Shown: positions 13,872 to 61,991 of the stretch, piece by piece | Layout: every line of letters starts with the position of its first letter | Position numbering within the stretch: the stretch's first letter is position 1 | Source of the DNA: a virus | IMG/VR virus record: IMGVR_UViG_3300037485_002668 | Span: 35,245-99,244 of that record | DNA: 64,000 bases | Reading direction: 5' to 3' (one strand) | The notes under the pieces: generated by a model | The model's input: only the letters and a program-made list of their open reading frames with translations | What the model was told of the DNA's origin: nothing | The model's database searches: none | Position numbers and translations under genes: made by a program

Positions 13872-14392
13872 ATTGCGTCCTTTTTCGCCTGGTATAAATC
13901 CCAAAGCTTGGTATATTGCGACAGCAATAAATTACTCAATTCCATATCGGTTTTAACCCAGGCTTCCACCTCGGCCAAATCCTGGCGGCTGGGGAATAAC
14001 GGCTGGTCTTCCATGGTTTTCAAAAAACGGGGAATAATTTTCTGCATGGAAACCAACATCGACATATTTTCCGCGATTTGTTCCGCCCGATTTACGGGCT
14101 TGGACTTTTCCATATTCTCACGGGATTTTGCATCCGTGATGCGTTCGAGCCGTTGCCGCCATTCCTTTTCATTCACCGGCACGTCTTCGAAACCCTCGGC
14201 GCAGGCCAGGGCGTATTCACGTTCCCGAACATAGGTTTGTTCGCGTAAAATGTCGGTCATATCCAGACCTGAAATTTTGACCGGCACGGATTTATCGTTA
14301 CCCGATTCATCTTTACCGAGCGGCCAGTCGAAAATAACTTCAATTTTTTTTTGTTGCTGCGCGTCGCGAATTAATTGCAGGGTGGTACTCAT
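13835..14392 (-). CDS. Tail assembly chaperone (gpG-like)
   Basis: Between major tail and TMP genes; slippery site near its end. Confidence 0.75.
   Translation of the reverse strand: MSTTLQLIRDAQQQKKIEVIFDWPLGKDESGNDKSVPVKISGLDMTDILREQTYVREREYALACAEGFEDVPVNEKEWRQRLERITDAKSRENMEKSKPVNRAEQIAENMSMLVSMQKIIPRFLKTMEDQPLFPSRQDLAEVEAWVKTDMELSNLLLSQYTKLWDLYQAKKDAIKNSSAEPNATK
13865..13871 (-). other. Programmed -1 frameshift slippery heptamer A AAA AAC
   Basis: ATA AAA AAC TCT (IKNS) shifts to ATA AAA AAA CTC TTC (IKKLF), matching the downstream ORF. Confidence 0.7.
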
Positions 14393-14748
14393 GATACAGT
14401 TTCCTTTGGTTTGGGGGTGTCTTGTTTTTCAGTTGTTTCTGGTTCATGTTTTGGCGTTTGGCCAGTGGGTTTAATTTCATTTCTGGCGATACTGAGCATT
14501 TTGTTACGATAGTACTGATAATTCAGCTCAAAAATAGCGAAGGCGGCTTCTTTGATAGGAGTGCCATCCTTAGCAGTCAAAATAATATGCAATTGAGACT
14601 CGGTAGGCAAAGAAGCGCCTTCGTATAATGCAATCGCCGTCCCTTTATGGTCGCGCGTAAACGAAGTAGGCTCAATTCCCAGCAGCGTTTTCACCGCGGC
14701 GATATAATGGAAATCGGTTTCGGGAATACTATTTTTTCCGTAATTCAT
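14389..14748 (-). CDS. Hypothetical protein
   Basis: ORF in tail operon, ATGA overlap with the chaperone gene. Confidence 0.6.
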   Translation of the reverse strand: MNYGKNSIPETDFHYIAAVKTLLGIEPTSFTRDHKGTAIALYEGASLPTESQLHIILTAKDGTPIKEAAFAIFELNYQYYRNKMLSIARNEIKPTGQTPKHEPETTEKQDTPKPKETVS

Positions 14749-16528: not shown

Positions 16529-17030
16529 ATTTAATCATTCCTACAATTTGGGCGGCTAACGAATTGGCGAGACGCAAGTCCAACACTCTTTTGATACGAT
16601 AATTGGAACTATTGTACGCCACGTAAACCGTCCGTTCGTCATCCACATAACCAGACAGATCTACAAACACGCCGCTGGTATTACATGTGCCATTTAAAAT
16701 CAATTCATATTTTAGAAATTCACCAATCGATTCCTGCTTGTACAAAAAATTACTGATCATCGATTTTTCGTAAACAGAAATTGCGGGGTCATGAAAAAAT
16801 GCTTTAATGGCGGTGGTGGTAGTCGTGGCGGCAATTTTCCCCGTGCCCAGGCAATCTTCAGCCAACGGAAACAGGCGATGATATTCCGGGTCGTAACGGG
16901 GAAAACTGGTGTTCTGACTGCGGTACGTCATGCAAGGGCAGGTCGTACCGGTTTTTACCACCAGATTTGCGCTGGCGCCGTAGTTCAATAAAAATTCGAT
17001 CCATCGGGTTTGCATGGTGATTACGCCCAC
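16521..17030 (-). CDS. Putative head closure / head-tail adaptor
   Basis: Synteny; CPC...CLGTG motif. Confidence 0.5.
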   Translation of the reverse strand: MGVITMQTRWIEFLLNYGASANLVVKTGTTCPCMTYRSQNTSFPRYDPEYHRLFPLAEDCLGTGKIAATTTTTAIKAFFHDPAISVYEKSMISNFLYKQESIGEFLKYELILNGTCNTSGVFVDLSGYVDDERTVYVAYNSSNYRIKRVLDLRLANSLAAQIVGMIKYA

Positions 17031-17488
17031 AACGAATAATTGGTGGTGGAATAATCGATTTGAGTCGAATCATAACCATCGGGTTCGTAATCACTGCCGC
17101 CCGAAAACGAAATATAACAACGGGAAAGCTTTACCCCGGCGGCGGATAAATCGTCTAAAATTTCCTTTTCAATCTCTTCGATTAAAGCTACGCGATCCTT
17201 CACGGAGACGGTAATCGGATTGAACGGACCAATTAAAAACAGACTTTCTTCGGGCGCATACGCCAACACACGCGCGGCGCAGATACCAATTTCCGCGGCG
17301 TCAATTAAAACCTGCTGATACGCGGCGAGACTGGCGTAAGTTACCGAACCACGCGCGAGCCAGGAATCCGTCTTGGCCTCAGCGTAGGGGATATATGCCT
17401 TTGAATTCAGCGTGGTATCATCGAGCTGCGTGGTGTTCAGCTTGCGTAATCGCTGCCGAACTTCCGTCGGGGTAATGCGATAAGCCAT
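17021..17488 (-). CDS. Putative head-tail connector
   Basis: ITPTEVR...LDD...AEA pattern; synteny after the capsid gene. Confidence 0.55.
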   Translation of the reverse strand: MAYRITPTEVRQRLRKLNTTQLDDTTLNSKAYIPYAEAKTDSWLARGSVTYASLAAYQQVLIDAAEIGICAARVLAYAPEESLFLIGPFNPITVSVKDRVALIEEIEKEILDDLSAAGVKLSRCYISFSGGSDYEPDGYDSTQIDYSTTNYSLWA

Positions 17489-17790
17489 TACACTTCATTC
17501 TCTAAATTTTCAGTTTGTTTCCGACCGCGGCCAGGCTTGACGGGGGGACTCGTGGTATTAGGCATCCCGGCCAGCGATTCCGTGATGGATTGAAGCTCAT
17601 CATTTTCCGCATAGCGCAGGATTTTGGCCACGATTAACCCATTCCAGAACTGAGTGGCCGGGACTTCATAAACCCGTTTCGGATTTTCCTTAAATTGTTT
17701 TTCGGAAATATCCAGCACAAATTCATTTTCAACATCGTAGCGGAACGTCCATTCCAACGCCACAACGCGCATTTTCGTAGGTGTTTTCAT
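17488..17790 (-). CDS. Hypothetical protein
   Basis: ORF downstream of the capsid gene. Confidence 0.6.
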   Translation of the reverse strand: MKTPTKMRVVALEWTFRYDVENEFVLDISEKQFKENPKRVYEVPATQFWNGLIVAKILRYAENDELQSITESLAGMPNTTSPPVKPGRGRKQTENLENEV

Positions 17791-17819
17791 AAAAAACCTT
17801 TTTTTTTAGTGTTAAAATA

Positions 17820-17849
17820 AAGTTAAAATAAATGCGGGCCGGAGCCCGC
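17820..17849 (-). terminator. Probable intrinsic terminator after the major capsid gene
   Basis: GCGGGC-TCCG-GCCCGC followed by ATTTATTTT on the minus strand. Confidence 0.55.
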
Positions 17850-19447: not shown

Positions 19448-21373
19448 TTAAATAATAGATTTGCTCAAATTGGTTTGTACGGCGGGCGCCGAGGACTTTT
19501 CAAGGTTCGGCGTAATTTTTGATTGCGGCGGATGTTCTTTTTCATAGGCGGAACTGAATGACGCGTGCAGGTCTAAAAGTTCAGTCAGCGCCATTTTCCC
19601 AAAAACCGTTTTGCGGGTGGCAACCAGTTCGGGATTGGTGTGGTCGAACATATTTAACAGACCGGCGAACGTCACCGTAGAATTTACCATTTCTTTGCGA
19701 AAAACGTCCAGCGCCGCGACCTGTTTCTTAATTTCCGGGAGGGGCTGGTCGGCAAAAATCTGATTCATTTCGGATTGAAAAGACTTGAGGGCAGTCAATT
19801 CCTGTTGAACTTGCTCGGGTGAAATGCCAGGGAAGGCTTTTTCAAAGTTGGCTTTGAACTCTTTGGCAGCGTCCCGCTCGGTAATGAGCATGGCAGCAGA
19901 CTTCGTAATTTCGTCCAACGCGGCCGTAAAATTCGGTTCCGTCAACTCGAATTCACGTTCCTGGATATTCAGAGCGGGAAGTGATAATTTCATCACGACT
20001 CCTGTATTAGTTAATGATTTTTCTTCTTTGGCTTTATGCGCCAAAAGATGATTTTCAGCTTTTTTTCTTAAATCTTCGGTAGAAACATTGGAACTTACAG
20101 CTTTAACCTGACCCATGCGCGCCAGCGCGTTATTGAAATGCGAGGCGTCCAGCGTGCCGCCGGTACCAGCGGCGCCATTGCCTTTGGCGTGATGGGGTAA
20201 ATGGCGGGCATTGCGGGGGGCGGTCAAACCATCGGCGTCTTTATCCAGGCCGGGTTCGACGGCGGCAAAACAATTGTCTTCCAGGGTATTAATATAGGCG
20301 GCTGACCACTGGGCTTTTTCGGCATCGGGGGTGACGCCGGCGGCGGCCAGGTCGAACATTTCGTAATAGTAGGCCAGGGGATCAAAATCGGGCGGGGGGG
20401 GTTTAACGGCGGGCGGAGGCATTTCTTTAGCGACACTGGACAGGGATTCCAGGGTGCGGGCGACCACGGTTTGAATTAACGTTTCAGGGAAATCAACGCC
20501 AGGGAAATAACTTTTGGTAACCTGCGCCGCGATTTGAGCGCCGAGGCCGACACTGGAAGTTTCCAGACATTCGACTTCAGCGGCGTCGGAATTTTGAAAT
20601 TCACAAAACATTAATTTAGGGTTGTCGCTGTTTTTCTCATAAATTGGTTTGTAGACAGGGACCGTAAAGCCGACGCTCAAATATTTATTGATTCCCATAT
20701 CAATTAAGCGACATTCCGTTTTTTCATCTTCCGTCACGTTGGATTTATAAAATTTAGCCGTGGCGAAATAAATCGCGCCGTCCAAAGATTGAATAAACTG
20801 AAGACGTTCTTTAAAACCTTTTTTAGTACGGCCGGGGATCATAGCCAGGGCTTCGTCAACCGTATACGCTTTTAATTCCGAATGATAAAAAAGCCCATCG
20901 CCAGGATTAATCCGGTCATGACCCGTCAATTTTCCTTTGCCTACCAGGGTATCTGACAAAGATTGCAGCGCGTCTTTACGGAAACGATCGGCGGCGCGGT
21001 CGGGAAAATTATTGGCGACCTGAGTTTCCCAGGTACGAACCATTTCGGGGGTAATTTTATCCGGACGCGGCATAAAACTTTTAATAATTTCCCAATCCGT
21101 TTCAGTAACGTCCGTACCTTTAATCTGAAGGTCAAACGTTTTATCAATTCGTGAATTGGGAATGAAATCTTTTTTCGCATCTAGCATAGCGACATACTCC
21201 AGGCAATCGTTGGCGGAGGTGAAATAGTTACGAAATTCGGCGGCGTCAGGCGAGGTTCCTTTGGCGAATTGAATATGGCGACCGGGTTTGGTGATAATAC
21301 CTTCAAAGTTTAGCGGGGGGCCATAATAATCGTCAAAATAGAAATACCGTTCAGTCGATTCGATTAAACGCAT
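19448..21373 (-). CDS. Prohead protease / scaffold fusion
   Basis: DRAADRF...GKGKLTGHD and LSVGF...ETSSV protease-like motifs; coiled-coil C-terminus. Confidence 0.65.
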   Translation of the reverse strand: MRLIESTERYFYFDDYYGPPLNFEGIITKPGRHIQFAKGTSPDAAEFRNYFTSANDCLEYVAMLDAKKDFIPNSRIDKTFDLQIKGTDVTETDWEIIKSFMPRPDKITPEMVRTWETQVANNFPDRAADRFRKDALQSLSDTLVGKGKLTGHDRINPGDGLFYHSELKAYTVDEALAMIPGRTKKGFKERLQFIQSLDGAIYFATAKFYKSNVTEDEKTECRLIDMGINKYLSVGFTVPVYKPIYEKNSDNPKLMFCEFQNSDAAEVECLETSSVGLGAQIAAQVTKSYFPGVDFPETLIQTVVARTLESLSSVAKEMPPPAVKPPPPDFDPLAYYYEMFDLAAAGVTPDAEKAQWSAAYINTLEDNCFAAVEPGLDKDADGLTAPRNARHLPHHAKGNGAAGTGGTLDASHFNNALARMGQVKAVSSNVSTEDLRKKAENHLLAHKAKEEKSLTNTGVVMKLSLPALNIQEREFELTEPNFTAALDEITKSAAMLITERDAAKEFKANFEKAFPGISPEQVQQELTALKSFQSEMNQIFADQPLPEIKKQVAALDVFRKEMVNSTVTFAGLLNMFDHTNPELVATRKTVFGKMALTELLDLHASFSSAYEKEHPPQSKITPNLEKSSAPAVQTNLSKSII

Positions 21374-24917: not shown

Positions 24918-25379
24918 ATGGCAAATTTAAGTGAAATGATTGATTCGGCTGTGTTTGGAACGCGGCCAAATAATGAACAGATTGAACCCGTTCCGGTTGA
25001 TCCGCAAACATGCCCAGCGTGTAACCAAAGAGCCGATGTTTATTTTGAAAAGAATATGTATTTTAAACATAATTGTGGTGCAAGGCTGGTTACGATTACC
25101 GATGGAAATGGCAATTATGGCGTTGCTTATGATCATCGTTATCGACATCACCGTGTATGTGGAAAAGTTTACGCATACGAGTTGGTGTTGAAATTAGATG
25201 ATAACCGTGGTTTAGGTTATGTTTACGGAACGCCGCCAATTGAAAGTTGTTATGGCGTTGGTGAAGACTCCTATTTATATTTGATAGGGGATACCCCTTT
25301 TGAACCTGCAAATAAGCCATTCTCGTATGTAAAGCGAATTGGCGAATTTGGCGATGGCCATTTCTTAATTCCAGAATAA
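24918..25379 (+). CDS. Hypothetical zinc-ribbon protein
   Basis: SD AAGAGGT; CPAC...HNCG. Confidence 0.75.
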   Translation: MANLSEMIDSAVFGTRPNNEQIEPVPVDPQTCPACNQRADVYFEKNMYFKHNCGARLVTITDGNGNYGVAYDHRYRHHRVCGKVYAYELVLKLDDNRGLGYVYGTPPIESCYGVGEDSYLYLIGDTPFEPANKPFSYVKRIGEFGDGHFLIPE

Positions 25380-25400
25380 TCCTGCAATAACTTATCGAGT

Positions 25401-25435
25401 AAAAAAAAGCCTCGCGGTTTGCGAGGCTTTTTTTT
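25401..25435. terminator. Bidirectional intrinsic terminator between convergent operons
   Basis: A8-GCCTCGC-GGTTT-GCGAGGC-T8. Confidence 0.9.
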
Positions 25436-25436
25436 G

Positions 25437-26366
25437 CTATTTAGTGGGGGATTTGAGGGCGGAAAAAAGTTTTGTCAGGAATTTGGAAAAGGGTTCCTGT
25501 TTGCAGGCGACGGTCAGGTTGTCGGGGTTAGCCTTGGGGAACCAGTCGGGGGACTCGAAATTCCAGGCGGCGATTTTGACGTCGGTGCAGGCGGCCAGTT
25601 GGGTGATACCAGAATCCTTACCGAGGTATAGTTTGGCGTTAGCAATTAACCAAAGAATTTCGGGCAGGCTGGCGCGGTTGCGTAAATCGATGAACGGCGG
25701 CCAGATTTCGAGCAGGTCGTTATCGGTGAATACGGGGTGGTCGTTACCAACTAAGACGATGCTTTTGAATTCGTTTTGACAGCGGCGCAAGACCTGCAAG
25801 ATACGGAAAAGTTCCTCGAAGGTGACGTTCTTTTCGGGCATGTCGTAAGCCCGCAGGTGGAATACAATGTAGGGTTGCGGGGGGATTTCGGCGGGCGGCT
25901 GAGGTTGGAAACCGGGATTCAATTTCAGTCCGCAATGTTCGACCAGGTCCGTAAGTTCCGCGGCGACATTAAACAAAAATACGTTTTTTGCCAGGCGGTC
26001 GGGGTGGGTCGGGTCACGGGGAATGAAATTATGATTTAGCATATTCGGCCAAAAGAGTTTGTCGTAATGCAAGCGGCCTTCCAGGAGGTGACTAAGCTGC
26101 TCGGTGGTGGTCAGGATTACAGTTTCGGTTGGATTTTGCTGGCGGTAATATTCAAAAATCGTATTGATCCAAATCCGATCCCCCAGGCGGTTAAATTCCG
26201 TACTCATGGCAAAATACGTTTGGGCGTTGGGCAGGGTCGGATATTTTCTTTTGGCAATGACTAAATAGCATTGCATACACTGCCAGCAACGGTCGGCGTA
26301 AAAATATTCGTCACGGGCGGGGTAATCGACTTCTTTGCCGCATTCACTGCAATGGAACAGGGGCAT
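25437..26366 (-). CDS. GT-B glycosyltransferase, GT9 (heptosyltransferase)-like, with N-terminal zinc ribbon
   Basis: RLGDRIW; IDLRNRASLPEILWLIANAKLYLGKDSGITQLAA. Confidence 0.75.
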   Translation of the reverse strand: MPLFHCSECGKEVDYPARDEYFYADRCWQCMQCYLVIAKRKYPTLPNAQTYFAMSTEFNRLGDRIWINTIFEYYRQQNPTETVILTTTEQLSHLLEGRLHYDKLFWPNMLNHNFIPRDPTHPDRLAKNVFLFNVAAELTDLVEHCGLKLNPGFQPQPPAEIPPQPYIVFHLRAYDMPEKNVTFEELFRILQVLRRCQNEFKSIVLVGNDHPVFTDNDLLEIWPPFIDLRNRASLPEILWLIANAKLYLGKDSGITQLAACTDVKIAAWNFESPDWFPKANPDNLTVACKQEPFSKFLTKLFSALKSPTK

Positions 26367-29726: not shown

Positions 29727-29743
29727 AATAATTCCTGTTTTTT

Positions 29744-29780
29744 GCTGTCAATCATCATTCCACCCAGGCAAGCTGGGTGG
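29744..29780 (-). repeat. 37-bp junction element, copy 7 (downstream of cysH)
   Basis: GCTGTCAATCAT-CATT-CCACCCAG-GCAAG-CTGGGTGG. Confidence 0.95.
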
Positions 29781-33183: not shown

Positions 33184-33197
33184 GTGGCCTCTTTTTG

Positions 33198-33234
33198 GCT
33201 GTCAATCATGATTCCACACGGGCAGGCCGTGTGG
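33198..33234 (-). repeat. 37-bp junction element, copy 8 (upstream of csf1)
   Basis: GCTGTCAATCAT-GATT-CCACACGG-GCAGG-CCGTGTGG. Confidence 0.95.
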
Positions 33235-34870: not shown

Positions 34871-35184
34871 CTGTAGGGTCCTTGGCTGTCAATCAGGTTT
34901 CCACCTGGCCTGTCCAGGTGGGGGAATAGATTATTTTTTAGTTGTTCGGCTTGTTCGTAGGTGGCGTCATCGACGTAGGATAATTCGGAAAAGCCACTCA
35001 GGGAATAGCCGACAAGCTGGGCAAATTGAATACGGTCTTCGTCTGAAAAATCCATCAGGGCAAGTTTGTTCAGATCATGTGGCCCATGTTCAAGCAAAAA
35101 TTGGACAATGGCATTGGCCTTGAAACGCAACGTGCCATGTTGGTCTTGAATAAGGGGTTGCAGGGGATGGGATTTATTTTCCAT
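34867..35184 (-). CDS. Hypothetical phage protein; 3' end reads through a repeat copy
   Basis: HPLQP...RFKANAIV...QFAQLVGYSLSGF. Confidence 0.75.
   Translation of the reverse strand: MENKSHPLQPLIQDQHGTLRFKANAIVQFLLEHGPHDLNKLALMDFSDEDRIQFAQLVGYSLSGFSELSYVDDATYEQAEQLKNNLFPHLDRPGGNLIDSQGPYR
34885..34921 (-). repeat. 37-bp junction element, copy 9
   Basis: GCTGTCAATCAG-GTTT-CCACCTGG-CCTGT-CCAGGTGG. Confidence 0.9.
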
Positions 35185-40229: not shown

Positions 40230-40247
40230 GATTTTTTTCCTTTTTTG

Positions 40248-40284
40248 GCTGTCAATCATACTTCCCCACGGGCAAGCCGTGGGG
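40248..40284 (-). repeat. 37-bp junction element, copy 12
   Basis: GCTGTCAATCAT-ACTT-CCCCACGG-GCAAG-CCGTGGGG. Confidence 0.95.
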
Positions 40285-48782: not shown

Positions 48783-48992
48783 CTATTTATTTTCCCATCT
48801 TTGAATCGCATCCATAGCGGTTAACGCGGGAACTTCTGTGTTGCTATATTTACCCGTAGTTGCATACGATACGACTCTTATGGCGCAAAAATAGACTAAC
48901 TTTTTAGGTAATTTCCAAACGAACCAAAACATAAATTTTGTACCCAGTTTGTTTAATTTACATGATAAATAAAGTTTACTAAATAAACTCAT
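48783..48992 (-). CDS. Small hypothetical protein
   Basis: SD AAGGA before ATG 48992. Confidence 0.6.
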   Translation of the reverse strand: MSLFSKLYLSCKLNKLGTKFMFWFVWKLPKKLVYFCAIRVVSYATTGKYSNTEVPALTAMDAIQRWENK

Positions 48993-49014: not shown

Positions 49015-49140
49015 CGGCTGCCGATGGGTTGGGGGAGTCGAACCCCCGCATGGTTCATCTATTCTACTTGCTGAAACAAGTTTTTTTCACCATGATCTAA
49101 CGCCGGCGATAACCCACGTTTTCAGACGTTTCGGCAGCCG
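49015..49140 (-). ncRNA. tRNA-like RNA with acceptor stem and T arm but non-canonical D and anticodon arms
   Basis: GTGGGTT/AACCCAT stem, GGGGG-TTCGACT-CCCCC T arm, enclosing 10-bp CGGCTGCCGA/TCGGCAGCCG stem. Confidence 0.6.
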
Positions 49141-49147
49141 TTTTTTT

Positions 49148-49184
49148 GCTGTCAATCATACTCCCACCCAGGCGGGCTGGGTGG
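49148..49184 (-). repeat. 37-bp junction element, copy 15 (precedes the tRNA-like RNA)
   Basis: GCTGTCAATCAT-ACTC-CCACCCAG-GCGGG-CTGGGTGG. Confidence 0.95.
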
Positions 49185-49196
49185 AGGGTAAAAAGG

Positions 49197-49904
49197 TTAA
49201 TGGGGTGGCATGGCGTCATAAATTTTGCCTTGCAACAGGCGGCCGGCCTGGCCTTTATTTTTGCCGCCCCACTGTTTGAAATAAAATGGGATATTTAGCT
49301 TTTCACACTGTTCCTTAATGGAAAGTACCCAGCCCTGTTCCATCGGGCGGGGATGGCGGCCACTTTCGCCGCCGACGATAACCCAATCGATGCCACGTAA
49401 ATCCAGATCATTGGAAACGTTAGCCAGCAGGGGTTCAAACGAAACGAATTTCATTCGGGCGTTGGTCTGGCGTAGCTGGTCGATACGGTGGGTGGTAAAT
49501 TGGTCCTCTACGGTTACGCCCAGCCATAAATTTTTTGGCCACGGATAGGTTTGGAAATCCTGAAGGCGGCATGGGCGTTTGGTCAGGACTTGGAAAACAT
49601 GCTGAGGTAAAGCCTGGATTACGCCAAAGATTTTTTCAATGAAGACATTAGGAACATTTTCATGAAATAGGTCACTCATGGAATTGACAAAGATCATTTT
49701 TGGGGACTTCAGGTTATAGGGAATGTCCAGGGCGTCCGGGTGTAACGTAACCTGGAAACCGTGGGCATATTTCGGAAGTCCCATAGCCTGGAGCCGTTTG
49801 GCCATGGTTTCGGCGTAGCAATATTTACAGCCGGCGGAAATTTTGGAACAGCCGGTGACGGGGTTCCAGGTGAAATTGGTCCATTCGATTTTTGACGTGG
49901 CCAT
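49197..49904 (-). CDS. Phage Gp37/Gp68 (DUF5131) radical-SAM-like protein
   Basis: SKIEWT..TWNPVTGC.KIS.GC..CYA; FVNSMSDLFH; GGESG; FKQWGG. Confidence 0.92.
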   Translation of the reverse strand: MATSKIEWTNFTWNPVTGCSKISAGCKYCYAETMAKRLQAMGLPKYAHGFQVTLHPDALDIPYNLKSPKMIFVNSMSDLFHENVPNVFIEKIFGVIQALPQHVFQVLTKRPCRLQDFQTYPWPKNLWLGVTVEDQFTTHRIDQLRQTNARMKFVSFEPLLANVSNDLDLRGIDWVIVGGESGRHPRPMEQGWVLSIKEQCEKLNIPFYFKQWGGKNKGQAGRLLQGKIYDAMPPH

Positions 49905-49938
49905 CAGGCGACCTCGGAATATATGTTTTGTTAAGATA

Positions 49939-50025
49939 CTATTTTTTTTTAGCCTGGTCATTGAAATAGACGTACAGCAAAAAGACGATTAAAAGTAAAA
50001 TAACCAGACCGGTATTATCTGACAC
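49939..50025 (-). CDS. Candidate 28-aa single-TM peptide
   Basis: GTG start: MSDNTGLVILLLIVFLLYVYFNDQAKKK*. Confidence 0.35.
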   Translation of the reverse strand: MSDNTGLVILLLIVFLLYVYFNDQAKKK

Positions 50026-50039
50026 TTAAATTTCCAAAT

Positions 50040-50321
50040 TAAAAAGCCTCGCGGCCTGGGGCTGAACGATAAAATTGCGGGGATCCGTGGGTTGCAACAC
50101 GCAAATTTAAGACGTTCAGGGATAAAGTTGATTTTTTTGCGAAATGGAATTCAAGCGTCGGCTGTAAGATTGCAGGTTGCACGCCGCAAGTTACGTCTCA
50201 CTCAACTTGCGGGGTCGGCAATAACTGCAAAAGCGTCCAGGGTGAGGACCTGGTTACAGTTTTCACGTCTAGACGATTGAATTGGGAGACCATTTCAAAA
50301 ATGAACTTTGAACCCAGGCCG
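50040..50321 (-). ncRNA. Candidate ~270-nt highly structured ncRNA or leader
   Basis: Nested helices, closing stem CGGCCTGGG/CCCAGGCCG, upstream promoter, 3' GNRA hairpin plus U tract. Confidence 0.65.
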
Positions 50322-50325
50322 GTTG

Positions 50326-50362
50326 GCTACCAATCAGATTTCTACCCAGGCAAGCTGGGTAG
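50326..50362 (-). repeat. 37-bp junction element, copy 16 (precedes the 270-nt RNA)
   Basis: GCTACCAATCAG-ATTT-CTACCCAG-GCAAG-CTGGGTAG. Confidence 0.9.
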
Positions 50363-50395
50363 GGGAAATATCAAATTACAGAATATGTAAAACTA

Positions 50396-50424
50396 AAAGT
50401 ACAAAAATTTTTAATAATAGTCAA
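50396..50424 (-). promoter_or_regulatory. Sigma70-type promoter upstream of the structured RNA
   Basis: TTGACT-17 bp-TACTTT. Confidence 0.6.
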
Positions 50425-50437
50425 GCGAAATTTTTGA

Positions 50438-50755
50438 TTATTGCAAGTTTTTTAATCTTGCCAGGAATGGCGCGGCGGCGCGGGCTTGCTGTTCCTTGCT
50501 TTTCAATAAATACCGTAAGCGCATTCGTTTCAGGACGTCGGGTGAAACGGCGCCTTCAACCAAAGGATGCTGGACGATATAACCCTCGCCAAGGGTTTTG
50601 ACAACGTCCACGGCGTCGTTTAACGTGCCGCCCTGGAAGGGAATGACCGGGGTAAATTCAATGCCCAGATCGACACAATCCAATAGTTCGGGGGTGAAAC
50701 CTTCGTTTTGGTCGGCTTCTTTTAACAGGTCATCTAAAATCATTTGCAGCGCCAT
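50438..50755 (-). CDS. Hypothetical protein
   Basis: SD GAGG; own promoter. Confidence 0.7.
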   Translation of the reverse strand: MALQMILDDLLKEADQNEGFTPELLDCVDLGIEFTPVIPFQGGTLNDAVDVVKTLGEGYIVQHPLVEGAVSPDVLKRMRLRYLLKSKEQQARAAAPFLARLKNLQ

Positions 50756-50804
50756 TTTTTTTGCCTCATTTTTTTTGTGAAAGGGTTCAGGTAATTATGA
50801 GGCG

Positions 50805-50834
50805 ATAATATATAAAAATTTTTATAAAAGTCAA
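50805..50834 (-). promoter_or_regulatory. Sigma70-type promoter containing a 16-bp palindrome
   Basis: TTGACT-16/18 bp-TATATT/TATTAT; TATAAAAATTTTTATA at 50811-50826. Confidence 0.65.
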
Positions 50835-50842
50835 GTACTTTC

Positions 50843-50879
50843 GCTATCAATCATGGAACTACACGGGCAAGCCGTGTAG
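50843..50879 (-). repeat. 37-bp junction element, copy 17
   Basis: GCTATCAATCAT-GGAA-CTACACGG-GCAAG-CCGTGTAG. Confidence 0.95.
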
Positions 50880-50888
50880 GGGTAAAAA

Positions 50889-51782
50889 TTAATCGAACGT
50901 TAACATGCCGCCGCGGTAATAGCTGGTGACGGCTTCGGCGACGGTGGCGGGGTGAATCATGGTGAAACAACGGGCGTAGCCGCCGGTCAGGTTGACGCAA
51001 TCGGTTAATTTGGATTTCCAACAGCCGTCCCAGGCGCCGCATTTCAGCGCGCCATTGGTGTAGAGATAGCGTTGATTGGGGTAAAGTTCCCAATGCGGGC
51101 CTTCTTTGGCACCAGCCAATACGACCGCGGGGGCTTGGTAGGCGGCGGCCAGGTGCATTTGGAAGGAAATACCACCCAGGGTACCCTGCGCCCAATAACA
51201 CAGGCGAATCAATTGACGCAGGTCGGTTTTACCGATTAAGTTGAAAACGCCTTCCAGCGGGGGGTGGATGTGATCTTTGTGACCAATTTGAACGAATTGT
51301 ATTTTATCCCGCAACAGGTGCACGACTTCCTGGTAATAGGGGTAATATTTAAGCGGGCATTCGGGTTTATAGCCGGCGTTAATGAGCCAAAATTTACCGC
51401 TATAGCCGAATTCGGTTTGGACTTGATTGGTCCATTTTTTTTCCGCCTCGCTGAGATAAATTTCGGGACGGATTGAGGTGCGGGTAATGGGCATGCCCAG
51501 GTAACGTTCGGCGTCACGGATCATGCCTTCAGCGTAATGAATGCAACTCCAGCCAGACTTGTGCAGCCAGCTATCGTCGTCGGCCTTGATGGTGACCAGT
51601 TGCACCTGCGGGTCCCGTTCGCTGAGGGGGGTCAGGTGGGGGTTATTTTCAAAGATTTCCGGGCACGGGGTGCGGACGTCAATTTGCCAGGCGGGGTAGG
51701 TAGTTTTCAGATCGGCGATTAAGCGGGTGAAGACCAGGATATCGCCGGGGGATTGGGGCTGGGTCAGGATTAGTTTACGCAT
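50889..51782 (-). CDS. GT9 (ADP-heptose:LPS heptosyltransferase-like) glycosyltransferase
   Basis: SPGDIL, EIFENNPH, NLIGKTDLRQLIRL...SFQMHLAAA. Confidence 0.85.
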   Translation of the reverse strand: MRKLILTQPQSPGDILVFTRLIADLKTTYPAWQIDVRTPCPEIFENNPHLTPLSERDPQVQLVTIKADDDSWLHKSGWSCIHYAEGMIRDAERYLGMPITRTSIRPEIYLSEAEKKWTNQVQTEFGYSGKFWLINAGYKPECPLKYYPYYQEVVHLLRDKIQFVQIGHKDHIHPPLEGVFNLIGKTDLRQLIRLCYWAQGTLGGISFQMHLAAAYQAPAVVLAGAKEGPHWELYPNQRYLYTNGALKCGAWDGCWKSKLTDCVNLTGGYARCFTMIHPATVAEAVTSYYRGGMLTFD

Positions 51783-52563
51783 GGGCGGGCACTCCAACAT
51801 AGTAGTCGTGGGGTGCTTGGCTGTCAATCACGGTTCCATCCGGGCAAGCCGGATGGTGACCTTCGTATTCAGCGTGCACTTGGCCGTTCACGGGGGCATT
51901 GGATTCAAAGGTGTGGCTGGTAAATGAACGTTTGGAATCGCAATACAAGGCGTAGTGCATGGTTTGGCCTTCCAGGAACATGGCGCGCATTACGTGATTG
52001 GTCATGACGGCGTTGACGGGGAGCGCCCAGGTAAAGTTGGTAAAATAGGCGTCCAGTTCGCTGAAGACGTTTACGCCGTCATCAAAAAAGGAATCTTTGT
52101 TTACGGCCATGCGGCAGACGCTGTTGACGAATAGCCAGCGGGGGGCTTTGCGTTGCATGGTTTCGAGCAGGTCACGCAGGTCAATGGCGGGGATATGCTG
52201 CAAGACGTAGACGCACAGGCCAAAATCGTAAACGGCGGGGTCGCTTAAATAATCGTGTAAAGTTTGCGGGGTGAAACGGTCGGACAGGACGTAACTTTTG
52301 GCGATAGATAACATTTGCGGGGATTGGTCAACGCCGGTAATTTCGATTTGGCGGGTGGGGTCGTTGGCCAGGATATATTTTTCCAGGCGACCGCTGCCAC
52401 AGCCGAACGACAGAATTTTTTTACCAGAAATTTTGGTTAAATCGGCGAGGAGTAAATCGCCGAAAATTTTAGTTTCGTGTTCCCAGCGGACGTGGGTCGG
52501 GATATTGTTACAATCGCCGACGGTCATGTGCTGGGATTCTTCGAGGGAGCGGGGAGAGAACAT
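51775..52563 (-). CDS. Class I SAM-dependent methyltransferase; 3' end reads through a repeat copy
   Basis: LSFGCGSGR, GVDQSPQML, CVYVLQHIP. Confidence 0.85.
   Translation of the reverse strand: MFSPRSLEESQHMTVGDCNNIPTHVRWEHETKIFGDLLLADLTKISGKKILSFGCGSGRLEKYILANDPTRQIEITGVDQSPQMLSIAKSYVLSDRFTPQTLHDYLSDPAVYDFGLCVYVLQHIPAIDLRDLLETMQRKAPRWLFVNSVCRMAVNKDSFFDDGVNVFSELDAYFTNFTWALPVNAVMTNHVMRAMFLEGQTMHYALYCDSKRSFTSHTFESNAPVNGQVHAEYEGHHPACPDGTVIDSQAPHDYYVGVPAHA
51820..51856 (-). repeat. 37-bp junction element, copy 18
   Basis: GCTGTCAATCAC-GGTT-CCATCCGG-GCAAG-CCGGATGG. Confidence 0.95.
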
Positions 52564-52578
52564 GTTGTTTTTTCCTTG

Positions 52579-52615
52579 GCTGATAATCATGATTCCACCC
52601 AGGCAAGCTGGGTGG
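52579..52615 (-). repeat. 37-bp junction element, copy 19
   Basis: GCTGATAATCAT-GATT-CCACCCAG-GCAAG-CTGGGTGG. Confidence 0.95.
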
Positions 52616-52656: not shown

Positions 52657-54033
52657 TTACACAACGGCCAATAATTTGCCTTCGGATTGGAGTTGGTGAT
52701 ATAATTTTACGGCCTGGGCGTATTTGACGCGCTCGGCTAAACGGTACTTAATTTGTTCCACCTGGAGCGGGGTGAAATTCTTTTGACCCAATAGTTCGTC
52801 CAGGGGGGTGATACCCAGTTGCGCTTCCAGAATGGTGTTTTCGATTTCCACGGCGGCGGCCTCGGCGTTTAACTTGCGGGCAGTGGCGGAATCGACCAAG
52901 TCCAGCAGGTTTACCGAAGACCAGGAAATTTTTAATTTCACATCCCCCAGGCCGCTGAGGAGTAACAGTGTGGCGAACAGGCGCTTGTAAATCAGGCTTA
53001 GGCCGGTACGATAATATTCTACTTTGGCAATAATCTTTTGGTTTTGTACCTGGGACATCTTTTCCGTCGACGTCCAGCGGTACAGCGGGAACATAAAGTT
53101 TGGCAAGCCCGTGGGCGCGAGCAGTTCCTCAATCGTAATATGGAATGGAATTTCCAGGTTGGGGAGTTGGTAATCGCCGCCAATTACGGAAATAGACGCG
53201 TCGCCAGATTCGGGAATGCCAATCGTCAAATCACCCACCTGACCCTGCTTGCGGGCCTGCATTAATTTGGTGAATTCCGCTTTTAACAGGGGCGTGGCGG
53301 TGGCGGGATCAAAATCGGCGGCGGTATTGGCGGAACCACCGCGAATTTTCATAAAAAAAGACGGGTCGCCAAAACGCCAGACGCCATTATCCACGGCCTT
53401 TAATAAACGGGTAAAAATCTGGCTGACCGCAGGCAATGATTTAAAGATCGAAAGTCCCTGGGGGTGACCGTTCTCATTGTGGTAAGACAGGTAATAAATA
53501 TTATCCATCTTATCAAATACCACGGCGTTGCTGCGGCCATAGTTTTGCATCAACACCAGTTGGCCGTCTTTTTCCAGGAATTGGAAATCGTTGGGACGGC
53601 CAATCACCACATTTACAATCGACTTTAGCTGGCGGGAAAGCACCGTTTCAAAAATCCCAAAGCCTTTGGAAATGGCAGAATGCAGCACCTGGGATTGCAA
53701 CGAAATCAGACCTTTGTTATAGCGATTGACGCTGCAATTTTCCACAAAGTCATCAATTACCGTTTGCGCGGTGGGATTTTCGGCGGTGATTATGGGTAAA
53801 CCGACCAGGTCAATCCACATCCAAACGGCGGAAGACAACAGGGGGATCGCTTCCAGCATCGAATCATAAACGCCGAGGTCGAACATAAACGGCGAAATAT
53901 TACTGGCGATAGGCGATTGCCAGCTTTCGCGCAATTGCGTGGCGAAACTGAAGGCGGGTTTGGCGGCGGCTTTAGACGGTTCAAGCTGAAGACGCGGCGG
54001 TTTGCGTCTCAGAAAATTCGGAATTATTTGCAT
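52657..54033 (-). CDS. Portal protein
   Basis: ~460 aa downstream of TerL; GFGIFE...HPQGLSIFKSLP pattern. Confidence 0.8.
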   Translation of the reverse strand: MQIIPNFLRRKPPRLQLEPSKAAAKPAFSFATQLRESWQSPIASNISPFMFDLGVYDSMLEAIPLLSSAVWMWIDLVGLPIITAENPTAQTVIDDFVENCSVNRYNKGLISLQSQVLHSAISKGFGIFETVLSRQLKSIVNVVIGRPNDFQFLEKDGQLVLMQNYGRSNAVVFDKMDNIYYLSYHNENGHPQGLSIFKSLPAVSQIFTRLLKAVDNGVWRFGDPSFFMKIRGGSANTAADFDPATATPLLKAEFTKLMQARKQGQVGDLTIGIPESGDASISVIGGDYQLPNLEIPFHITIEELLAPTGLPNFMFPLYRWTSTEKMSQVQNQKIIAKVEYYRTGLSLIYKRLFATLLLLSGLGDVKLKISWSSVNLLDLVDSATARKLNAEAAAVEIENTILEAQLGITPLDELLGQKNFTPLQVEQIKYRLAERVKYAQAVKLYHQLQSEGKLLAVV

Positions 54034-54271
54034 AGACCACTTCCTTAATGAAGATAATTGCAATCCAATTAATCCGGCCGAATTTTAGGTCGGTCGTTAA
54101 CTTTTGCGCCATGTTGAACTTGACCTGTTCCAGGGTTTCGTAGCTCAACGGCAGGGGAACATCTTTGAGAAGCAAATTGCCTTTGATGACGCGGTTGGCA
54201 ACGGCGGCCAGTTCGACCAGCGGGCAAACCTCGGCTTCCCAAGTGAGGTAAAAAGATTGGGTTTTGACCAT
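53981..54271 (-). CDS. Hypothetical protein
   Basis: ATG lies within the repeat box. Confidence 0.5.
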   Translation of the reverse strand: MVKTQSFYLTWEAEVCPLVELAAVANRVIKGNLLLKDVPLPLSYETLEQVKFNMAQKLTTDLKFGRINWIAIIFIKEVVYANNSEFSETQTAASSA

Positions 54272-55635: not shown

Positions 55636-55639
55636 TTTG

Positions 55640-55676
55640 GCTGTCAATCAGTAAACCACACGGGCGAGCCGTGTGG
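55640..55676 (-). repeat. 37-bp junction element, copy 21
   Basis: GCTGTCAATCAG-TAAA-CCACACGG-GCGAG-CCGTGTGG. Confidence 0.95.
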
Positions 55677-55689
55677 TGATAAAATAAAA

Positions 55690-56931
55690 TTAACGGGCGC
55701 CATAGGCAATATAGACGCCGAGCTTTTTACGGGCGTGCAGGCGATGGTGGGTGTACATGGCGTAACGCATTGGGTCCATCGCATGGTTCATATAGTTTAC
55801 AGGCTCTTCTAAAATACGGCCGGTTTTATCCTTTTTGTGTTTATAGGCGCGAATTTCTTTTAGGGTATTAATCGAATCTTCTAAAATATGTAACTTTTTA
55901 CGGCGGCAAAAGTCGATACCGTCATTTACCGAATTCGGATTTTTATAGGCCAGGGTACTGTGCAGGAAACCAGCGTCAATAAATTCATTTACCCGGTCGG
56001 GTTCGGCGGCGTCGCAATAGATTATGGCTTTATCGGGGTTGGGAATAGCGGCGCGGCAACGGTCGATAAATTGCTGATTCGTGAGACCTTTTTGATAGAT
56101 ATGTTCACGGATATAATAATGCGGGTCACGGACGCCAATTTCCAGCAAGACACTGGGGGCGTTATATCCAAAGTCCACGCCGTAAATAGCCTCGTCGTAA
56201 TAGCTGGGATTCCAGACGCTCAGCGCCTCATAATTCGTATAAACCAGATTTTGTAAGACGCCCCATTCCCCCAGGGTGTAGATATCGTAAAAGACCTGGT
56301 CCTGATCCTTCAGGCTTTCCAGTTCGTCAATATATTCCTGGTTGATAAATTCGTTATCGTAAACCGTGGAATGGTCGATGGTGGTGTCTTCTTTGGGGTT
56401 TTTGAAGAAATAGTTATTCAGCCAGGAAAAAACGTCAATCGGGTTAAACGTAAGCATAATCTGCTGATACGTGCCCAGGTCGCCACGCAGCCGGAGATTG
56501 ATTTGGCGGAATTCGTCTTCGGTGAGTTCGGTGGGTTCCTCAATCCAGATCGCGGTAATACGTTCAATGGACTTTACCTTTTCGGGGTCGTCCACGGAAA
56601 CGGAAATGATTTGATTGCCATTGGGGGTATAGGTAATGGTCAGAGACGAATCATTGAACTTGAATAGTTCGCCGAGTTGCCATTTATAGATATAGTCTTT
56701 TAACAGCGTATAACACGAACGGCGCAGGGACGGGAACGTTTTCCGCACTAGCAAGATACGATGTTTGACCGGTTCAAAGAGAATCCGGTCCAAAATCTTT
56801 AATGCAGCAAAGTGGGACTTCCCGCTACCTGCGCCGCCGTACATTACGAGAAAACGGCTTTGATTTTTCAGGTACGGTAAGAAGTGGGCGGAATGAAAGT
56901 CTTCGGGATACCCGTTGAATTTAATTAGCAT
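55690..56931 (-). CDS. terL: Terminase large subunit, PBSX family
   Basis: YGGAGSGKS, WIEE, LTFNP, GVDFGY, NHAMDPMRY. Confidence 0.95.
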   Translation of the reverse strand: MLIKFNGYPEDFHSAHFLPYLKNQSRFLVMYGGAGSGKSHFAALKILDRILFEPVKHRILLVRKTFPSLRRSCYTLLKDYIYKWQLGELFKFNDSSLTITYTPNGNQIISVSVDDPEKVKSIERITAIWIEEPTELTEDEFRQINLRLRGDLGTYQQIMLTFNPIDVFSWLNNYFFKNPKEDTTIDHSTVYDNEFINQEYIDELESLKDQDQVFYDIYTLGEWGVLQNLVYTNYEALSVWNPSYYDEAIYGVDFGYNAPSVLLEIGVRDPHYYIREHIYQKGLTNQQFIDRCRAAIPNPDKAIIYCDAAEPDRVNEFIDAGFLHSTLAYKNPNSVNDGIDFCRRKKLHILEDSINTLKEIRAYKHKKDKTGRILEEPVNYMNHAMDPMRYAMYTHHRLHARKKLGVYIAYGAR

Positions 56932-61309: not shown

Positions 61310-61522
61310 TTATGATCCTTTTTTATTCAGTTGTTTCAATTTGCGGGCTATGGCGAATAACTCCTGTTGAGTCAACGCTTCGCCGCAGCCAGGCCAATAG
61401 CGCAATTTATTTAATTTGCGTCCGGTTTCAAGATAACCCCGGCAAAAGCCAAGTTCGCCTTTACCACAATTGTCGTTGATACGATAACCGTTTTTAACTT
61501 TGGTAAAAATGAATGTTTGCAT
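61310..61522 (-). CDS. Hypothetical protein
   Basis: ATG 3 nt after a repeat box. Confidence 0.55.
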   Translation of the reverse strand: MQTFIFTKVKNGYRINDNCGKGELGFCRGYLETGRKLNKLRYWPGCGEALTQQELFAIARKLKQLNKKGS

Positions 61523-61525
61523 TTG

Positions 61526-61562
61526 GCTGCCAATCTGTTTACCACCCAGGCAAGCTGGGCGG
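61526..61562 (-). repeat. 37-bp junction element, copy 24
   Basis: GCTGCCAATCTG-TTTA-CCACCCAG-GCAAG-CTGGGCGG. Confidence 0.85.
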
Positions 61563-61571
61563 GGGTAAATT

Positions 61572-61991
61572 TTATATCGTATGCAACACGGGATTAATCG
61601 TGCTAGCGGTGGCATGGCGCAGCAGGTGGATTAATGCCAGTTGCACACGGGTTTTGAAAAATGCCCTGGGGATGGGATAAATGGCTTTGACCCCAAAGGC
61701 GAATAGCGTTTTAAAATTATGATCTGAATTAATCAGATTCAGCCAGGGCAGGATGGCAATAATTTCCTGCACCTGGGCGTTATACAAAAAGTGCTCCAAA
61801 TGGTGGAACCGATTTTGAATAGACGTCAACAGGACAACATGGCCATTGGGGGTATTTTGGTGGACATGTCCCTGGCGTTGCAACGCCGCGTATAAAATCG
61901 GTTCCGCCTCCAGATAGGGGCAGAAATACGGTTCCTCACGCAAGAGCTCTAGAATTAGTGAACATATTTGGGTCGGTACGGGATAAATCAT
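61572..61991 (-). CDS. Hypothetical protein
   Basis: ORF track. Confidence 0.55.
   Translation of the reverse strand: MIYPVPTQICSLILELLREEPYFCPYLEAEPILYAALQRQGHVHQNTPNGHVVLLTSIQNRFHHLEHFLYNAQVQEIIAILPWLNLINSDHNFKTLFAFGVKAIYPIPRAFFKTRVQLALIHLLRHATASTINPVLHTI

Follow-up and report, generated by a model that had tools for sequence, protein, structure and literature searches.

Structured RNAs of unknown function encoded by phages and prophages include ROOL and GOLLD, ornate molecules that self-assemble through kissing loops (PMC12286853), and these two, like manA, were recently found to build RNA-only assemblies (PMC12286853; bioRxiv 10.64898/2026.07.01.735769). New RNA families of tractable size for which expression evidence exists are good material for the question of RNA-only assembly. 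Here, we describe a candidate for such a family in an uncultured sediment phage, whose 99-kilobase (kb) genome (IMG/VR virus record IMGVR_UViG_3300037485_002668; 99,244 base pairs, bp) carries direct terminal repeats at its ends. The window, i.e. the stretch that was analysed, is the right-hand 64 kb of this record, and positions refer to it unless stated otherwise. Within the window, a ~530-nucleotide (nt) gap between an open reading frame (ORF) of 105 amino acids (aa) and a DUF5131 gene holds a highly folded element, which we consider, on balance, to be a stand-alone and stable non-coding RNA (ncRNA) gene of ~265–280 nt on the minus strand, from a family not yet catalogued. As a structured RNA it is real, is probably expressed and represents a new family.

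Predicted fold, library coverage and natural variants

All helices named in an initial annotation of this locus were found in the minus-strand sequence. A 9-bp closing stem, P1 (CGGCCUGGG, 50321–50313, pairing with CCCAGGCCG, 50060–50052; pair probability 0.98), encloses the whole predicted fold (50052–50321) and, within it, two arms: a long rod that ends in a three-way junction, and a side arm. The rod (P2–P5; 50124–50309) is interrupted and comprises the helices AAAGUU/AACUUU (50309–50304/50129–50124), AUUUUU plus GAAAUGG/CCAUUUC plus AAAAAU (50302–50290/50147–50131), AAUUCAA/UUGAAUU (50283–50277/50154–50148) and CGUC/GACG (50275–50272/50159–50156), with helix probabilities of 0.71–0.99 and two bulges, 6-nt UCUCCC and 12-nt UAGACGUGAAAA, both on the 5′ strand. 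At its distal end (50162–50259), P6 (CUGUAA/UUACAG, 50259–50254/50167–50162) leads to a 5-bp hairpin, P7 (CCAGG-UCCUCAC-CCUGG, 50253–50237; loop UCCUCAC at 50248–50242), and to a hairpin of ~22 bp, P8 (UUGCAG..CCGCAAGUU-loop-AACUUGCGG..CUGCAA, 50230–50170; loop GAGUGAGACGU at 50203–50193; pair probabilities 0.76–0.99). The 58-nt side arm (50062–50119) is built from CUGAACG/CGUUCAG (50119–50113/50068–50062), UAAA/UUUA and UUGC/GCAA, three helices predicted at 0.83–0.99, and has an ill-defined tip.

Pair probabilities of 0.7–0.99 thus apply to P1, the rod, the side arm and the long hairpin. The junction proposed in the initial annotation is near-optimal (–89.9 vs. –90.2 kcal/mol unconstrained) but ambiguous: pair probabilities in this region amount to 0.2–0.4, with P6 and P7 competing against an alternative fold of similar energy that pairs GUCC with GGAC. 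As to coding capacity, the locus contains ORFs of 31–62 aa, for which no homologues were found (a search with the 62-aa plus-strand ORF gave no match), and none is plausible.

The minus-strand fold was more stable than every one of 100 dinucleotide shuffles (z-score –5.70), and so the concern that its folding energy might be no better than that of shuffled controls fell away. Over 361 nt, the plus strand scored similarly or better (–128.6 vs. –110.9 kcal/mol; z –5.97 against 100 dinucleotide shuffles), as it did in a genome-wide Lfold scan (z –6.4 on the plus and –5.0 on the minus strand). A scan of energies in segments of fixed size was uninformative, for the fold needs both of its ends within the segment. 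As the other strand and ~10 further loci per strand fold likewise, the folding energy of this locus beats chance but is not unique, and alone is weak evidence.

Firmer support for an RNA comes from public sequencing data. An index search recovered the stretch in 12 runs, four of which (X2–X5) were aligned to 49500–50900; X6–X12 had small word shares and were not used as evidence. Two of the aligned runs, X2 and X5, are metatranscriptomes from different studies, and X3 and X4 are DNA runs. Contigs of all four delimit a conserved and expressed core at 50059–50320 (minus strand; 96–100% identity). In X5, one 247-nt contig covers, along its whole length, 50065–50312 and nothing else, at a depth of 16.8; in X2, contigs identical to the window span 50071–50301 and a second variant spans 50089–50169. 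On the DNA side, an X4 contig covers 50088–50238, and a 396-nt contig of X3 covers 50059–50320 before continuing into 133 nt unlike the window. At ≥95% likeness, none of the X2 or X5 contigs lay on the 105-aa gene, on the repeated hairpin-box element upstream of the RNA (see below) or on the DUF5131 gene. The RNA-library contigs of both studies end within 9–20 nt of P1 on either side, which, in contigs that give no strand, true ends or level, is a hint of a discrete molecule. DNA contamination of these libraries is disfavoured, because the flanks would then be covered too. The environmental RNA data suggest that the RNA is abundant relative to the neighbouring messages.

Natural variation provided a second line of evidence. 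The variants in X2, X3, X4 and X5 are 96–99% identical; compared with the window, they show eleven differing sites and one insertion. Each of the six single substitutions hits an unpaired position, a class that makes up 80 of 262 nt in the minus-strand fold (binomial p ~8e-4); a 1-nt deletion shortens a run of seven A that pairs with only six U, and the 2-nt insertion, seen in X3, lies in the tip loop of the side arm. Changes within helices are confined to X5, where four affect both sides of two adjacent P8 pairs, one of them compensatory (A-U to G-C) and the other broken (A-U to U-C). All five variants, the window included, yield the same predicted structure, and loops and bulges of up to 12 nt are invariant among them. 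Read from the sequences, such a pattern is what purifying selection on the helices would predict. That the structure lacks a function, being a chance-stable remnant that merely shields a piece of operon mRNA from decay, would fit the comparable fold scores found elsewhere in the genome, some of them within genes, and the lack of distant homologues. With every single substitution unpaired, one pair compensated and large loops invariant across four studies, we judge it very improbable.

Searches for a known family were negative throughout. The Rfam check proposed in the initial annotation was carried out by cmscan, and no match reached the gathering score anywhere in the window (Rfam 15); with permissive filters, both strands of 49700–50700 returned nothing at E ≤ 10 among 4227 families. 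ARAGORN called no tRNA or transfer-messenger RNA (tmRNA), and blastn in "distant" mode detected no homologue in GenBank phages, plasmids or E. coli genomes, the last of which were also meant to reveal any sense or antisense match to conserved ribosomal RNA. An exact pattern combining both hairpin loops (GTCCTCACC, 35–65 nt, TTGAGTGAGACG) had zero matches in IMG/VR, and so had the exact pattern AACCAGGTCCTCACCCTGG. The two-loop pattern did match seven JGI metagenome contigs and four GTDB genomes; all eleven were dismissed as chance, showing no wider similarity. By these sequence comparisons, the RNA belongs to no known family. The initial annotation had offered a novel ncRNA as one of its options, and the lack of an Rfam match at E ≤ 10, RNA contigs confined to the RNA, and variation that spares the helices all speak for it.

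Some of the same data would suit an element that acts as DNA, e.g. an origin of replication, a site of recombination or a miniature mobile element with inverted repeats; its imperfect palindrome would then just resemble an RNA fold, with the RNA arising by incidental read-through. Both strands fold equally well with nearly all pairs Watson–Crick, and a 9-bp terminal inverted repeat borders the block sharply. In X3, the block is joined to 133 nt unlike the window, as might be expected of a movable module. Yet it occurs as a single copy in the genome, has no target-site duplication at P1 (the flanks read AAC and CGA), and yielded no further copies in the searches of GenBank phages, plasmids, E. 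coli, IMG/VR, JGI contigs and GTDB genomes. The RNA-library contigs, moreover, cover the block and not its flanks, and the avoidance of helices by substitutions and the constancy of loops and bulges as long as 12 nt point to more than a palindrome. A DNA-level role therefore seems quite improbable. A miniature inverted-repeat transposable element was considered in its own right and rejected: the 9-bp terminal inverted repeat is present, but there is no target-site duplication and only one copy.

Several observations weigh against a stand-alone ncRNA gene. No homologue more than 4% diverged was found in the collections searched; the variants themselves, 1–4% diverged, offer one compensatory pair and no statistical covariation; and the contigs carry no strand, ends or level, with both strands folding about equally. 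Near-pure Watson–Crick helices (2 G-U among 95 pairs on the minus strand) also fit a DNA inverted repeat and give no strand signal, the promoter candidate at 50396–50424 is weak, and some of the ~10 other loci per strand with Lfold z ≤ –5.5 lie within coding sequence.

Flanking signals and the strand of the RNA

On the minus strand, which is that of all genes neighbouring the RNA, signals follow each other in the order promoter-like site, hairpin-box, RNA, and terminator-like hairpin with U run. From these signals and the gene orientation we consider the minus strand likely to be the one transcribed. The promoter named in the initial annotation, TTGACT-17-TACTTT (50396–50424), is indeed present as a sigma70-like candidate, but it is weak, its –10 element matching at three of six positions, and a consensus scan does not flag it. 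It is recognisable as a degenerate version of a better site at 50834–50806, which sits before the 105-aa ORF and has a near-consensus –10 element (TATATT or TATTAT). A 22-nt motif, TTGACTnTTATnAAAAATTTTT, occurs twice in the window, once at either site (50403–50424 and 50813–50834), where 0.12 copies would be expected.

Between the promoter candidate and P1 lies what had been described as a "junction element" (50362–50323). The element is there, but instead of being specific to this locus it belongs to a repeat, the hairpin-box, with ~22–24 co-oriented minus-strand copies throughout the 99-kb genome. Its layout is an 8-bp hairpin with a 5-nt loop, a 5-nt spacer and the box TGATTGACAGCC(AA), and the stem covaries between copies; at the RNA (50323–50362), it reads CUACCCAG-CUUGC-CUGGGUAG, 5 nt, then UGAUUGGUAGCCAA. 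Further copies in the window, all on the minus strand, include those at 2708–2792, 29741–29780, 33195–33234, 34882–34921, 40245–40284, 49145–49184, 50841–50880, 51817–51856, 52576–52615, 55637–55676 and 61523–61562. No other IMG/VR contig carried the hairpin-box: the box TGATTGACAGCCAA had only single chance matches in that collection, and box plus hairpin half had none.

In most copies, an ATG follows 0–23 nt past the box, sometimes leaving no room for a Shine–Dalgarno sequence. Two copies, by contrast, precede structured RNAs rather than ORFs. One heads the RNA described here, with P1 beginning 2–3 nt past the box; directly past the other lies a tRNA-like RNA at 49015–49140 (minus strand), ~1 kb away. 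The latter has a 10-bp closing stem and a perfect T arm (GGGGG-UUCGACU-CCCCC) followed by a U run (z –4.8); it matches the 3′ part of tmRNA below threshold (17.6 bits), and ARAGORN calls no tRNA. Both closing stems start with CGGC a few nt past the box. Because it stands before RNA genes and protein genes alike, the hairpin-box more probably marks a point at which transcripts start or are cut than it serves as a translational signal. A 91-aa ORF listed from 49058 overlaps the tRNA-like RNA and more likely starts at an ATG near 48990, behind AAGGA.

Under the reading of a minus-strand ncRNA gene, the 5′ end would lie at ~50321, 2–3 nt past the hairpin-box, made either by initiation at that point or by cleavage of a longer RNA started at the weak promoter (50424–50396). 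A 5′ end just past the box fits RNA-library contigs that do not include the hairpin-box. The 3′ end would be set by the terminator hairpin and U run at 50057–50041; once the molecule is released, its 5′ and 3′ ends could pair as the 9-bp P1. In this arrangement, a terminator would separate the DUF5131 gene from the promoter or operon upstream. We infer the exact ends of the RNA from these features.

Could the plus strand, antisense to the operon, be the one that gives rise to the structured RNA? Besides folding slightly better there (–128.6 vs. –110.9 kcal/mol; z –5.97; Lfold z –6.4), it would contain eight G-U pairs instead of two, and a promoter-like TTAAAA-18-TATTAT is found at 49989–50018. 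However, promoter-like sites were no more numerous than in shuffled sequence (two found, 1.4 expected), no terminator-like site lies beyond 50320 on the plus strand, the only flanking terminator belongs to the minus strand, and Lfold scores run high across the plus strand in general, with antisense DUF5131 coding sequence reaching z –5.8. Given that the hairpin-box and all neighbouring genes are oriented the opposite way as well, transcription from the plus strand is improbable in our view.

The Lfold scan highlighted several other loci in this genome. For instance, a ~300-nt stretch at 61519–61844 (minus strand) that ends in a hairpin-box copy gave the second-best minus-strand score in the genome (z –7.0; –4.5 against shuffles). 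Further outliers (z –5.5 to –7.6) lie at window positions 25258–25544 (both strands) and at genome positions 14381–14535 (plus), 16801–17069 (plus), 17553–17848 (minus) and 19680–19860 (both strands).

Neighbouring genes and the terminator-like hairpin

The gene block around the RNA is encoded on the minus strand and runs from the large terminase (55690–56931; PF04466, E 2e-43) through a DNA methylase, the portal (52657–54063; PHROG 30703; no relatives of the protein found in IMG/VR), a methyltransferase and a family-9 glycosyltransferase to the 105-aa ORF (50438–50755). The latter lies upstream of the RNA between two related AT-rich promoter-like sites (TTGACT-nTTAT-AAAAATTTTT). Its product has no family in Pfam, PHROG or NCBIfam and only three homologues (46–51% identity), and no sequence similar to the RNA was seen at the one IMG/VR locus with such a homologue. 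The 105-aa protein was also considered as an RNA-binding partner of the RNA; an AlphaFold2 model (predicted local distance difference test, pLDDT, 72) and a Foldseek search against the Protein Data Bank (PDB; no match at E ≤ 0.001) gave no clue to this effect. As the hairpin-boxes at either end of the 105-aa segment have in common an unusual CUAC...GUAG stem and a T-AGC box variant, and its promoter-like sites are related, the ORF looks from its sequence context like an inserted cassette.

The flanks of the RNA also seem to differ between strains. In the phage sampled by X3, flanking genes are 99–100% identical to those of the window, with 50321–50455 and 49922–50058 uncovered at ≥80% likeness. 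Since, in addition, its RNA contig continues into 133 nt unlike the window, at least one segment beside the RNA appears to be replaced or hypervariable between strains.

Downstream of the RNA lies the DUF5131 gene (radical-SAM-like; 49197–49904, minus strand; Pfam PF07505, E 3e-94), and beyond it a methyltransferase and a radical SAM gene on the same strand. The DUF5131 ORF was listed from an ATG at 49961 (49197–49961), but the Pfam match begins at residue 23 of this version and the ATG at 49904 is preceded by GAGG 7 nt upstream; the shorter ORF is thus the most likely one by sequence. This start codon lies 136 nt past the U run of the terminator-like hairpin. The protein also matches the NCBIfam model "radical SAM mobile pair protein A" weakly (101 bits, cut-off 355).

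The terminator-like hairpin itself (AGGCC-GCGA-GGCUU plus U run; 50041–50057, minus strand) was flagged by a terminator scan. As stated in the initial annotation, its 5′ half overlaps the 3′ strand of P1: 5 nt are common to 50060–50052 and the terminator stem at 50057–50053. In silico, the two are mutually exclusive (–90.2 kcal/mol with P1 vs. –82.8 kcal/mol with the hairpin), so that forcing the terminator costs 7.4 kcal/mol; alone, the 5-bp hairpin is worth –6.2 kcal/mol. Taken by itself, such computed exclusion does not show a switch. Nor is a clear promoter or a hairpin-box of its own seen for DUF5131, and because the hairpin-box is missing, its transcription probably depends on read-through past the terminator.

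These features recall transcription-terminating riboswitches and attenuators, in which an RNA upstream of a same-strand gene has a closing stem that competes with a terminator hairpin. Accordingly, the RNA might be a cis-acting leader, whose fold would set the choice between stopping at 50057–50041 and reading through into the DUF5131, methyltransferase and radical-SAM genes; the pieces in the RNA libraries would then represent the terminated leader. Terminated leaders are known to accumulate in RNA-seq, which counts for this possibility, as do the position of the RNA on the same strand as a DUF5131 gene without recognisable promoter and the 5-nt overlap that makes the folds exclusive. In ten IMG/VR phages with DUF5131 relatives (35–56% identical), however, nhmmer and blastn detected no similar sequence within 2.5 kb upstream. 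In most of these phages, coding sequence extends to within ~100 nt of the gene, and the longest upstream gap among them does not fold (z +0.4). The 136-nt spacer between U run and start codon is long, no riboswitch model in Rfam matches at E ≤ 10, and the second RNA behind a hairpin-box, ~1 kb away, resembles a tRNA and not a sensor. Furthermore, P1 is far more stable than the 5-bp terminator, which would make read-through the default, yet RNA-library contigs end at the RNA. Unlike a riboswitch or attenuator, then, the RNA is not linked to DUF5131 in relatives, is separated from it by a long spacer, matches no aptamer and occurs alone in RNA libraries. A leader function is unlikely on this evidence, and the attenuator dedicated to DUF5131 that the initial annotation had proposed is disfavoured by the relatives without RNA and the RNA-library contigs that stop at the RNA. 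Read-through control of DUF5131 is plausible as a side effect of the RNA unit.

Relation to described RNAs

If the locus is a stand-alone ncRNA gene, its large invariant fold with invariant bulges and loops would suggest that the RNA acts in trans, conjecturally as a protein-binding scaffold or decoy or by self-association. In its genomic setting, it resembles the PeSL-type mobile regulatory cassettes of T4-like phages, as a compact unit that occupies intergenic DNA and has promoter and stem-loop signals at its front. A PeSL, however, is short and consists of a promoter and a hairpin, in contrast to a fold of 260 nt. The present module was joined to a different flank in one run, in a single 396-nt contig on which any mobility would rest. 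Pairing of the 5′ and 3′ ends into a stem is found also in bacterial Y RNAs, such as the Ro60-bound YrlA and Yrn1; the present RNA, in contrast, is without a tRNA-like domain, matches no Rfam Y RNA and has no motifs in common with Ro60-associated RNAs.

The initial annotation had likened the RNA to the packaging RNA (pRNA) of phage phi29 (RF00044), as both are phage-encoded and combine a three-way junction with two loops able to pair between molecules. pRNA measures ~120–174 nt, compared with ~270 nt for the RNA here. The complementarity between the loops (CUCAC/GUGAG) does exist: UCCUCAC and GAGUGAGACGU can form five contiguous Watson–Crick pairs (duplex –8.2 kcal/mol), and both loops are invariant in all five variants. 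A match of only 5 bp, though, arises in 1.7% of random loops and 9.7% of loops of the same composition; it is within chance and shows no covariation, and lends no support to a kissing loop, which is conjectural. The dimer gain of 9 kcal/mol computed by RNAcofold was not informative. Should the loops pair at all, pairing between molecules would be favoured, because the arms are very unequal (5 bp vs. ~22 bp). The pRNA analogy itself did not hold: no model match was obtained at E ≤ 10, and the phage, unlike one with a phi29-type motor, has a large terminase, a portal and direct terminal repeats, for which reason a packaging RNA is not called for. The portal ~2.3 kb away, which had been cited in its favour, is no evidence, as nearness means little within a block of packaging and head genes.

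Even so, the RNA shares with ROOL (RF03087) and GOLLD (RF02032) that it is an orphan phage RNA near other RNA genes and exposes complementary loops, although it is two to three times smaller, matches neither model, and is compared here by its predicted fold. A self-assembling phage RNA, whose two loops would pair head to tail between molecules to form rings or filaments serving as scaffold or sponge during infection, appears distinctly unlikely. The RNA is small enough for in vitro work, with natural variants at hand, and comes from a phage rich in RNA biology, given a tRNA-like RNA 1 kb away and a hairpin-box found genome-wide. Having two RNA genes headed by this element should be useful for the study of the element itself. 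If self-assembly were true, the RNA would be produced from the hairpin-box, a punctuation element in front of protein and RNA genes alike, and would constitute a small new relative, in kind rather than in sequence, of pRNA, ROOL and GOLLD.

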